A DNA stretch of 64,000 bases from Macrostomum lignano (taxonomy: Eukaryota), in assembly GCA_002269645.1 (NCBI GenBank), contig NIVC01000019.1:1-64000 (forward strand), in the 5' to 3' direction. The position numbers and the translations under genes were made by a program. Shown here piece by piece: positions 1,856 through 4,736 of this stretch (positions within the stretch are counted from its first letter, which is position 1; every line of letters starts with the position of its first letter). The notes under the pieces were generated by a model, which worked only from the letters and a program-made list of their open reading frames with translations, was not told the DNA's origin and made no database searches.

Positions 1856-4736
1856 ATTTGGCTAAATTTCCACCCCGCCCCAGCCCGACACTGTCGAAGG
1901 CAACGGTAAGGAGTTGATTTTATTTCATGAGTCATTCACCCGCCGCCGCCGCTTGCAATTCTAATTTCAAGCGCTCCAATTTTTCAGGCTTCATTGCGCG
2001 CCTTGGCGGGGCAAAGGCTCTGCCTAAATTTAAGGCAAAAGACTACAAGTATGCAGTATCGCTCACAGCAGATATGGTTGATATTCGAGCGTTTGAACGT
2101 TTGATGGAATAATTTCTGTGCTCTGCGCGGACCTGCACGCCGATGATTTTGTCGCGGCTAAACTGACTGCTGACAACATGTTGCTGACCGTCAATGTCGA
2201 TTTGGGGGAGAATTTCTCCAATTGCGTCACCCACTCAGACTGTGCCTGCCAAATGGCCGACTTTGTGGCAGTGGGCTCGAGCCCGCTGAATGCATTTTTT
2301 CGCCTGGCTGAGCACAACATTCCGAGGCGGCGCCATAGTTGCGGCTCACAATGCATCTGACTACGATGCTATTTTGCTGCTCGGCGCTCTACTCAACGGC
2401 CTGGCCAAGAAGCGGCCACAAGTGGTGTTTCAAGGCAGCCGGCTAATGTGCGTGACGGTTGACAAGTTGGTTTTTAAAAACTCGCTCAACTTTATGCCAA
2501 TCCTGCTTGCACAATTCCCAAAGCGCTGGGCCTTGCAACAAAGCTGGCCAAGGGGACCTTTCCCCACGAGTTCAACAAGCCGGCCGATTGGAACTACGTG
2601 GGCCCCTACCCGGCTATTGATTACTACGGCGGCAAGGCCAACAAGGAATACGACTCCATCTGTGCATGGTTGGCCTCGCGACAGGGCGAGTTGTTCAACC
2701 TTAATCGGGAATATCTCGATTATTGTTTGAGCGACACAGTCCTGCTTCGCGAGGGCTGTGTAGCTCAAGTACAGGGCGATAATTGCAGACATTTGCGATG
2801 GGCTTGAACCATTTGTTCAGGCTGTCATTCTCGGCCGCAAGGTGAAAGGCTTCGATGAGGCTACAAACATTGTTTTGCAGTTTCATGGCTGCTTCTACCA
2901 TGGCTGCGAGCAGTATATGCCCGACCAGGATGTTGTCCACCCACTAAAGCGGCAGCCTCTGAGCCACATCCGCCACGAGACTGAGCGGTTCACTCGCGAG
3001 TTGGAGCGGCATAATTACAGTGTTCGTGTCATTTGGGAGCATGAATATGACACTGTATTGGCATCGCAGGCTGATTTTATCGCCGCAACTGCCCATCTGC
3101 GTGCACCGCTCAAGATGGAGGATGCGCTCTACGGTGGTCGAGTAGAATGCTTCATCCCGCATGCTATGGCCAGTGATACTGAGGCGCTCAAATATCAGGA
3201 TGTGGTGAGTAGTGATACTACTAATGTAGTAGAATATTTTGCAAAATATGAAATACAGTTTATGAGAAATACTGTTTTATTTCAACTGGCAGGTCTCTCT
3301 GTACCCGACGGTACAATCAAAAGACGCGTACCCGATTGGCCACCCGGTGCACCACCCGACGCCGCAGACACTCGACTCTGACGCGCTGGCCAGCTACTTT
3401 GGCATTGCCGAAGTAACAGTGCTGCCGCCGTCAGATCTGCACATTCCGCTGTTGCCATACAGGGTGCAGAAGAAGCTCATTTTTGGGGTTTGCCGCACCT
3501 GTATGGAGCAGCAGCAGGAGCAGTGCAGCCGCGAGTGCTGCAGCCACTCAGACCAGGAGCGGGCGCTGACGGGTACCTGGGCAACGCCGGAGCTGCGGAA
3601 GGCCTTCTAGTTGGGCTACCGTCTGGAAGCCGGGCACGCGCTAGCCTACTGGACAGAGCAGAGGACCGGCCTGTTCAGCGAGTCAACACCTTTCTCAAGC
3701 TGAAGGCCGAGTCGAGCGGCTCCCCCGGCATGACTGACGATGAGCGGGCTGCCTAAATTGCCGATTTTTACTCCAAGGAAGGCGTCAAGCTGGACGGGGT
3801 CGAGCCCAACCCAGGACTTCGCTTTGTGGCGAAAATCTTTTTGAATTCGAAAGTAATCATAATTCTGCTTGTTAAAATATTTATTTTACTAACAGTAGCA
3901 GCACAAACCCAATATTTTCACAGGCTCTGGGGTAAATTCTGTCAGCGCGATGACCTGAGATTGTGTCCAGCTACGAGGACTGGCTCGCCCGGCTGACCGA
4001 TCCGAAACTCCAGGTCAAGGCCTGCGAGCCGATTGGCAGCGAGTTTATGCTGCTGCTGCTGGAGTACCGGCACCGCTACTTTAATCAGCGGCCGTTCCGC
4101 TACTCCAACGTACCAATCGGGGTCCTTACGACCAAGCAGGCCCGACTGCGCCTGCCTGTACGAGGCCTTGGAGGGTCTCGGCGAACGGGCCATTTATTGC
4201 GACACCGACTCGTAAGTATTGGCTGGATAGATTCTTTTAGAATTGATTACGTATAGACATGTAAATAAGATTTAGTACCTGACTAATTGCCCACCCACAC
4301 ACACAGGGTCGTTTACCGCCATTCCGAGGGCCAATGGGAGCCGGCCCATGGCACGAGCCTCGGAATGTGGACCGACGAGGTGCCTGCAGGCAGCCAAACG
4401 ACCGACTTTGTAAGTGGAGGGCCCAAGCTCTACACTTACATTGTCGAGGATGCGGCCGGTGCCCGGAGCCAGGTCCTGAAATGCAAGGGCATTCACCTGA
4501 CGCCAGAGATTTGGGAGCGCAGTGAGGACCTGCGCAGCGCCCTGCTGCACGGCGGCTCTCTGCAGCTGTCGCAGTTTCAGTTCAGGCGCGACAAGACGTC
4601 TTGTACCATCCATACGATCAATATGGACAAGACGTTTCAGCGCGTGCTGACAGGGACTACTCAAATAGCGCCTACCTCCAGGATGTTCGGTAGGGCCTTT
4701 TTCCATCGCTCTCGCTCAACCGAGTTTCGTAGCTAA
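1856..4736 (+). pseudogene. Protein-primed family B DNA polymerase (Polinton/Maverick-type pPolB); intron-containing and disabled
   Basis: ExoII-like AHNASDYD (2344-2367); KNSLNFMP; KGTFPHEFN; LSDTVLLREGC; DALYGGRVECF; motif A YQDV|VSLYP; motif B KIFLNS|LWGKFCQR; motif C YCDTDS|VVY; GMWTDE; FVSGGPKLY; KCKGI. Introns at 3205-3292, 3849-3923 and 4212-4306, possibly also 1906-1987. Several frameshifts and a stop at 3754-3756. Confidence 0.9.

Follow-up and report, generated by a model that had tools for sequence, protein, structure and literature searches.

Background

Autonomous Polintons, or Mavericks, measure 13-25 kb, begin with 5'-AGTAGT, carry genes for an integrase, capsid proteins, an ATPase and a protease, and have intronless core genes; intact vertebrate Mavericks are called intronless in the accessible text of one study (PMC8097293). 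Protein-primed family B DNA polymerases (pPolBs) of the pPolB2 group with a VSR domain are described in Polintons/Mavericks (adintoviruses) in the available sections of a recent preprint (Jeong et al., bioRxiv 10.1101/2023.08.22.554363). Here we examine the first 64,000 nucleotides of contig NIVC01000019.1 of the flatworm Macrostomum lignano (assembly GCA_002269645.1, forward strand; hereafter the window), near the start of which lies a dead copy of a mobile element. This element, derived from Polintons and ~9 kb long, has six introns in its polymerase gene, three of them within the catalytic motifs A, B and C. The element resembles Polintons/Mavericks in the clade of its polymerase, the Vsr insertion in that enzyme, its terminal inverted repeats (TIRs), a 6-bp target-site duplication and a PC4-like gene. 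It differs from autonomous Polintons in its size of 8.5-10.4 kb, in having no integrase, capsid, ATPase or protease gene, in its ACTAC ends and in its six introns. The element is not an autonomous Polinton; it works like the replication half of one.

Three further systems share parts of this organisation. Like linear plasmids that arose from Polintons when the capsid module was lost, and like transpovirons (PMC11161782), the element is a linear replicon that has TIRs but no capsid, with a terminal-protein/vOTU/polymerase fusion predicted; unlike them, it integrates into an animal nuclear genome with 6-bp duplications and uses the spliceosome, and no RNA polymerase or helicase gene was found in it. 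Mirusvirus 'shintrons' (PMC12768974) are likewise spliceosomal, interrupt essential genes of a nuclear DNA virus-like element and have a Vsr-like nuclease close by, whereas the flatworm motif introns encode nothing and the nuclease domain sits in the polymerase itself. Dinoflagellate introners (PMC11957031) are also spliceosomal introns within Polinton-type elements, but they are mostly recent secondary insertions of repeated families, whereas the flatworm introns are old, common to all copies of two families and carried through transposition. These comparisons draw on the accessible parts of the three sources. In the available text of the pPolB2 preprint (10.1101/2023.08.22.554363) introns are named only as a source of HNH domains, and in that of the adintovirus paper (PMC8502044) only for a maturase. 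Two Macrostomum transposon papers contain neither 'Polinton' nor 'Maverick', and a literature search whose scope excluded the founding 2006-2007 Polinton papers, Repbase and supplements returned no account of the element or of Polinton polymerase introns located in motifs. Taken as a whole, the locus is probably best explained as a dead Polinton-derived element with a polymerase gene that is spliced in sister copies, a likely borrowed integrase and motif introns perhaps gained at nuclease cuts.

Six introns shared by two element families

Copies of the gene were sought in the 764-Mb genome assembly. The 3' half of the gene gave 41 DNA matches (40 of 135 candidates scored), made up of three nearly identical copies and a group roughly 85% similar (family A). 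Over the polymerase gene, the DNA of another family, B, is some 65% similar to that of family A. One exon gave 117 protein matches across families A and B, which are pieces and not copy numbers. We examined 32 family-A and 28 family-B entries taken from the best matches, so that intactness is biased upward. Introns 1 to 6 lie at the same positions in both families and were located in 15, 23, 22, 31, 32 and 30 of the 32 family-A copies and in 25, 25, 26, 28, 28 and 28 of the 28 family-B copies; wherever both flanks were found, none of the 60 copies lacked an intron. Their lengths (63-121 nt for the motif introns) are spread over all three frames, the donors are GTAAGT, GTGAGT or GTAAGG and the acceptors YAG; in nine of the 15 family-A copies, intron 1 was mis-set by four bases. 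Retention of a motif intron keeps the frame open in none of the 28 family-B copies for any of the three and, in family A, in 14/31, 4/32 and 0/30 copies for introns 4, 5 and 6 respectively.

Between the families, corresponding introns are 52-56% alike, with 48-53% in shuffles, and the introns are 49-65% alike to one another in global alignment, with 48-65% in shuffled controls. An origin as introners was rejected because the introns do not resemble one another. No self-splicing group I or group II intron was matched in Rfam within positions 1-20000 of the window or at seven loci, and no intronless or processed genome copy was found, as a spliced database model matched exon by exon only (76 of 614 candidates scored). 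A degraded, AT-rich and intronless pPolB2 on contig C234 belongs to a distant lineage (44% identity).

A family-A copy served to find public sequencing runs. No run is recorded as RNA, and run type (RNA-type or DNA-like below) was guessed. Contigs, which cannot measure levels, were aligned to one family-A and one family-B copy. In the family-A copy, the motif-A and motif-C introns are skipped in contigs of runs X1, X5 and X6, from three studies; X1 also skips the counterpart of intron 2 (window 1906-1987) and X6 one further intron. In the family-B copy, introns 1, 2, 3 and 5 are skipped in X5, X6 and X9, and intron 4 in X6 and X9. Among the joints listed, the DNA-like run X10 has none of those of family A and the DNA-like run X11 none of those of family B. 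Overall, the joints occur at GT-AG in RNA-type runs of four studies, and the two DNA-like runs are without them. One X6 contig of 1,335 nt spans both the motif-A and the motif-B junction and departs from the reference precisely at the donor in motif C, with 133 letters remaining; one X5 contig end retains an intron. The sister copies are transcribed and their six GT-AG introns removed; junctions across polymerase introns, the check proposed with the original prediction (made from the letters of the window alone), occur for sister copies in RNA-type contigs (X1, X5, X6 and X9). The features are those of U2-type introns (GT-AG ends, skipping in RNA-type contigs and frame-free length, with run type guessed and two joints inferred from contig ends). 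The segments are true spliceosomal introns, as had been proposed, kept by the paralogs at shared positions.

The window copy and its decay

Mapping of paralogs onto the window, where the gene lies on the forward strand, returned exactly the three motif introns originally described, in position, ends, length and phase (a slash marks each junction): intron 4 at 3205..3292 in motif A (DV/VSLYP; 88 nt, GTGAGT..CAG, phase 0), intron 5 at 3849..3923 in motif B (LNS/LWGK; 75 nt, GAAAGT..CAG, phase 2) and intron 6 at 4212..4306 in motif C (DTDS/VVY; 95 nt, GTAAGT..CAG, phase 2). Their G+C contents are 0.28, 0.28 and 0.36, and their 100-nt flanks have 0.50-0.66. The motif-B donor has decayed here, as suspected, since GTAAGT stands in 26 of the 32 family-A copies and GAAAGT in four. 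A fourth candidate, at 1906..1987, is real and has the same coordinates in the paralog mapping (intron 2; 82 nt, GTAAGG..CAG, phase 1). Thus, the four introns named at the outset all stood; the implied total did not, because the gene has six, of which the first is cut here by a retrotransposon and the third deleted. Joining the exons restores the motifs, as was claimed: spliced database models align without gaps to uninterrupted relatives over motifs A, B and C.

The copy is disabled, again as predicted, by a retrotransposon, a deletion of ~1.4 kb, and frameshifts and stops in the remaining exons. A LINE-type (long interspersed nuclear element) retrotransposon at 1..1816 (+), with RVT_1 at 622-1137 (E 3e-18), coincides with a gap in the alignment to a paralog and substitutes for exon 1 and most of intron 1; the left TIR lies beyond the start of the contig and is visible in a near-identical copy on contig C89. 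Paralog homology restarts at 1817, and the 3' end of intron 1, with acceptor TGCAG, occupies 1817..1855 (its counterpart is skipped in family-B RNA-type contigs), followed by exon 2 at 1856..1905, placed by paralog mapping. A remnant of exons 3 and 4 lies at 1988..3204, the two fused by the deletion, which takes intron 3, the zinc fingers and the bulk of the predicted terminal-protein/vOTU region; what is left retains part of the exonuclease together with the Vsr-like domain (Vsr profile, E 1e-4), with several frameshifts and stops. Exon 5 (3293..3848, motif A to motif B; PF03175, E 2e-4) is frameshifted and contains stops, exon 6 (3924..4211, motif B to motif C) is broken in the alignment to paralogs, and exon 7 (4307..4651) ends where paralog homology stops, positions 4652-4736 being read-through into unrelated sequence. 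The statement that no TIR lies nearby was wrong: the right TIR, at 5710..6087 (-) and ~456 bp long in the C89 copy, ends ...TAAGTAGT (5'-ACTACT on the other strand) and is followed at 6088..6093 by the target-site duplication TGTGTA, an identical hexamer standing to the left of the left TIR of the C89 copy.

A Vsr-type pPolB2

The pieces between the window introns match only PF03175, the model of organellar and viral family B polymerases, which is also found in all 16 aligned proteins. The best solved relatives are phi29 polymerase (E 5e-9) and Vsr (E 1e-4, profile), whose domain lies between exonuclease and palm. PF00136, the cellular-type polymerase model, gave no match, and the sole other DNA polymerase in the PDB list scored E 0.48; the trees contain no cellular sequences. 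In FastTree phylogenies, families A and B together make up one clade, with a support of 100, inside the pPolB2 group, with the uninterrupted protein P0041 as sister; they group with relatives from Caenorhabditis nigoni, a frog and other animals, away from the EndoVII-type and pPolB1 enzymes of their own genome. By sequence the polymerase is a pPolB2 of the VSR subgroup, in agreement with the initial assignment to Polinton-type protein-primed polymerases and with that to an intron-bearing Polinton lineage. No relatives were found in the viral contig collection. The AlphaFold model is poor (mean pLDDT 52.8), and no fold match reached E 0.001, the weak neighbours being Vsr (E 0.012) and the homing endonuclease I-Bth0305I (E 0.23). 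The terminal-protein domain is unconfirmed, with no PHROG match and only unnamed animal clusters in the Atlas.

Ends, mobility and selection

Paralogs share a TIR-bounded unit of 8.5-10.4 kb. A perfect 6-bp target duplication flanks 31 of the 33 entries with both ends detected; the remaining two were mis-paired by our script, one of them in an AGT microsatellite. The ends read ACTACT in 21 cases, ACTACG in nine and ACTACA in one, and some TIR pairs are 100% identical. The ratio of nonsynonymous to synonymous differences (pN/pS) is 0.14 within family A (6 pairs), 0.11 within family B (25 pairs) and 0.34 between families, where synonymous sites are saturated. Among copies with all exons located, exons 2-7 are open with GT-AG sites in 4/13 of family A and 11/25 of family B. 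The exons are under purifying selection, and both families are alive. Most copies retain the Exo, vOTU and Vsr motif residues, the Vsr motif being kept in 25 of 32 family-A and 27 of 28 family-B copies. The motif names follow, in part, PMC11161782 and the Jeong preprint.

A PC4-like gene (E 3.5e-8), homologous to that of co-resident Polintons, lies head-to-head with the polymerase gene (L040:2661-3278, -), and its 75-nt intron is skipped in three RNA-type runs. It is present in 25 of 28 family-B and five of 32 family-A entries, these five overlapping with the five carriers of a dUTPase gene. Other small frames of the left arms have no credible family match. Two 5.96-kb derivatives of family A (L195 and L196) have 2.3-kb inverted arms that duplicate the polymerase 3' half.

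Missing genes, co-resident Polintons and palindromic satellites

The absence of integrase, capsid, ATPase and protease genes, first noted around the window copy, also applies to the elements searched here. Polinton proteins, which as tblastn queries find one another at ~30% identity, detected none of these genes in 12 elements and hit only PC4-like and dUTPase genes there; across all 60 entries, there was one weak match to an integrase query and one to a neighbouring Polinton's gene, each in an entry that includes flanks. Profiles for the same proteins found nothing in 15 coding elements, taken in pieces as short as 15 residues, or in 20 non-coding ones, and detected a held-out control Polinton (integrase, E 4e-57; capsids, ATPase and protease, E 1e-8 to 5e-11). 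The suggestion of a virus was not borne out, if by virus is meant an element that brings its own capsid.

Full-size Polintons are also present in this genome; they are 16-17 kb long, have no introns and carry integrase, capsids, protease and ATPase. All eight integrase-bearing Polintons with readable ends start with AGTAGT, and four others gave no resolved ends; A.TA.T and the duplication length are common to these ends and those of the element. Given that the co-resident Polinton polymerases are distant and that the A/B clade is sister to P0041, the element did not arise from its neighbours by deletion. Other Polinton families, four at least (C114:460183-476982, C506:477342-494412, C291 and C1704), are intronless and have polymerases of EndoVII/HNH type or pPolB1, and some co-resident Polintons are without most of the polymerase yet carry integrase and capsid genes.

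Searching with the family-B end pattern gave 234 genome matches (control, 0). Among the first 100 matches listed were 21 end pairs without a known polymerase; 20 were fetched (L233-L252, including the foldback elements C93:602814-611469 and C303:572722-582109). A perfect 6-bp duplication flanks the first pair of ends in 18 of them, and 14 are palindromic to 85% or more. Thirteen of these 14 measure 8.1-9.4 kb, as long as the coding elements, with no Polinton gene; the count covers family-B ends only, the family-A pattern being too narrow (1 match). The shared length of ~9 kb may reflect packaging or replication limits. Since the palindromes insert with ends alone, the ends suffice for insertion, which supports a supply of integrase in trans; the full-size Polintons are the likely donors. 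Two loci have family-B ends around cargo: L242 and L248, with two tandem Gypsy-like long terminal repeat (LTR) retrotransposons (9.9 kb in total) and a mariner-like transposase (motifs identified by eye), respectively.

Introns in conserved motifs

Measured against 38 uninterrupted relatives, the sites of the motif introns rank among the most conserved 5-16%. The probability that three or more of six introns lie at sites so conserved is 0.002-0.06, depending on window width (2e-5 if the motifs are defined post hoc). We extended the comparison to metagenomic relatives, of which the best 80 of 408 were used, a set biased against interrupted genes (28-38% identity). The motifs are contiguous in most of the 80, and 71 carry the Vsr-like motif. 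Seven loci have between them nine GT-AG insertions of 63-110 nt. These amount to seven different sequences and occupy five positions, of which two lie in motif B, one lies in motif C and two are next to other conserved motifs (P = 2.5e-4). None of these insertions matches a flatworm intron position. The carriers are scattered among intronless rows, and one well-supported clade combines three different endings in motif B with a member that has no intron. In a set of 217 relatives there are 67 independent gene calls that end early; 15 of these stop in motif windows that make up 5% of the range, ten of them at motif B, which is struck far more than other equally conserved motifs; several such calls have tails resembling splice donors, with the same ending on several contigs. 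Judging from these alignments, the catalytic motifs look like hotspots of intron gain, with apparently independent gains in distant relatives. A full-size metagenomic Polinton (L094:4455-14830), whose integrase, capsid, protease and ATPase are single-frame, has a 90-nt GT-AG insertion in motif B of its polymerase.

A proposed mechanism and its rivals

The scheme that we propose starts from integrated copies, which are transcribed and have their six introns removed. The polymerase product, with a predicted terminal protein, vOTU protease, zinc fingers, exonuclease, Vsr-like nuclease and palm, would copy the linear element from its own ends. This replication step is inferred from retained residues and the known architecture of pPolBs. 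The first two bases of the end recur at positions 4-5 (AC.AC), which fits jump-back priming. Co-resident Polintons have AGTAGT ends and the element has ACTAC; protein-primed replication would start from a private ACTAC origin. The PC4-like protein may bind displaced strands, a Polinton integrase would insert the element in trans with 6-bp duplications, and the non-coding palindromes may parasitise the element's polymerase. During competition between elements, site-specific nucleases would cut the most invariant DNA of the gene, which would account for the clustering of introns at motifs A, B and C. Once placed there, an intron would abolish the site, spare the protein and resist imprecise loss. 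The accessible texts of three sources offer precedents: homing endonucleases specific for alleles without the intron, among them the Vsr-like EDxHD enzyme I-Bth0305I, whose cutting is blocked by an intron at its site (PMC3239194), mirusvirus homing introns (PMC12768974) and inteins of family B polymerases (PMC4760082). We favour gain of the motif introns at nuclease cuts over survival, sequence bias or chance, and a regulatory gate, although our confidence in such gain falls slightly short of even, and gain and survival could act together. A more specific version, in which the polymerases' own homing-type Vsr/HNH nuclease cuts the motif DNA of rivals and introns are repeatedly gained as immunity alleles, we regard as unlikely.

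The motif introns might instead be survivors, gained anywhere, lost imprecisely in variable regions and kept where inexact loss kills the enzyme, as is commonly argued for inteins. A DNA element has no reverse-transcription step by which introns could be lost precisely, and all five positions in relatives lie within or beside conserved motifs. Inteins, too, occupy conserved motifs, with three sites in the catalytic domain of family B polymerases, in the available text of PMC4760082. Yet introns 1-3 have been kept in variable regions since the split of families A and B, over which synonymous sites have become saturated, motif B is struck far more than other invariant motifs, and the exact intron position within it differs between close relatives, which leaves survival doubtful as an account of the whole pattern. 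Splice-like codons (the G/GT-rich W-G-K and other protosplice sites) or chance could also produce clustering with no nuclease: a G follows most junctions, P is 0.02-0.06 with wide windows for the flatworm gene, and introns favour (A/C)AG/Gt contexts (PMC3488318, in its accessible text). The exon ends, however, are TC/, T/ and G/ rather than MAG/, such contexts occur throughout an intron-free exon of 640 codons, and the motif enrichment recurs out of sample in relatives; we consider this explanation improbable.

That splicing gates polymerase output was part of the original prediction and is unsupported; in a regulatory form of this idea, tissue- or stress-dependent removal would set the timing of active enzyme. 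Retention does break the frame or a motif, and the one intron-retaining contig end in X5 would fit, but any frame-breaking intron would do and a position in a motif adds nothing, the splice sites are plain consensus, introns of families A and B are no more alike than shuffles, and every RNA-type run examined gives spliced contigs, all of which makes a gate quite improbable. The other proposal made at the outset, a host gene family domesticated from a Polinton polymerase, has on its side the introns, transcription, purifying selection and the filing of the family in UniRef as host 'DNA-directed DNA polymerase' genes. It is contradicted by the TIRs and by distinct 6-bp duplications at 31 of 33 entries, which make the copies fresh insertions, and by many broken copies and same-ended non-coding satellites, and we find it scarcely credible.

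Several observations weigh against the explanation that we favour and the evidence on which it is built. The runs are only guessed to be RNA, and the splicing contigs come from sister copies, not from the window's own copy; the family-A motif-B joint and the family-B motif-C joint are absent among the joints listed, contig ends falling on those splice sites. Of the six introns, three are in regions of low conservation (rank of intron 3, ~1,000 of 1,237; introns 1-2 are unscored), the metagenomic GT-AG insertions are putative introns, and the count of early-ending calls can be inflated by contig ends and by alignments that stop at strong motifs, one case having been checked in DNA. No nuclease is encoded in the introns, the trees are from FastTree only with no clade test, and no integrase-bearing element with ACTAC ends was found among the 114 of 2,318 integrase candidates scored.

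Other features of the window

Beyond the element, the window contains large inverted and dispersed repeats, 97-100% identical, at 7005-11023 and 16256-17841, and the gag-pol remnant of an LTR retrotransposon (DUF7041, protease, reverse transcriptase and RNase H) at 11647-14259. A 28-bp unit, repeated ~230 times and with long open frames, forms an array over 41538-50915, and the mitochondrial ribosomal protein domain MRP-S35 lies at 51611-52618.

Implications

Surveys of Polintons that demand long open frames together with integrase and capsid genes miss spliced members with no integrase, and the present element shows a Polinton polymerase expressed via the spliceosome in an animal. The system to which it belongs has three tiers: Polintons of full size, this element with only the polymerase, and palindromes that encode nothing. 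Repeated gain of introns in motifs bears on the origin of spliceosomal introns and on the role of the nuclease domains of pPolB2 enzymes. If nuclease immunity is the true cause, it would constitute a selfish route of spliceosomal intron gain in animals, seen in a satellite that replicates itself, lacks an integrase, has a private origin and bears palindromic hyperparasites of its own. RNA data for M. lignano are rich, which makes splicing, small-RNA control and extrachromosomal forms of the element directly accessible in this animal.

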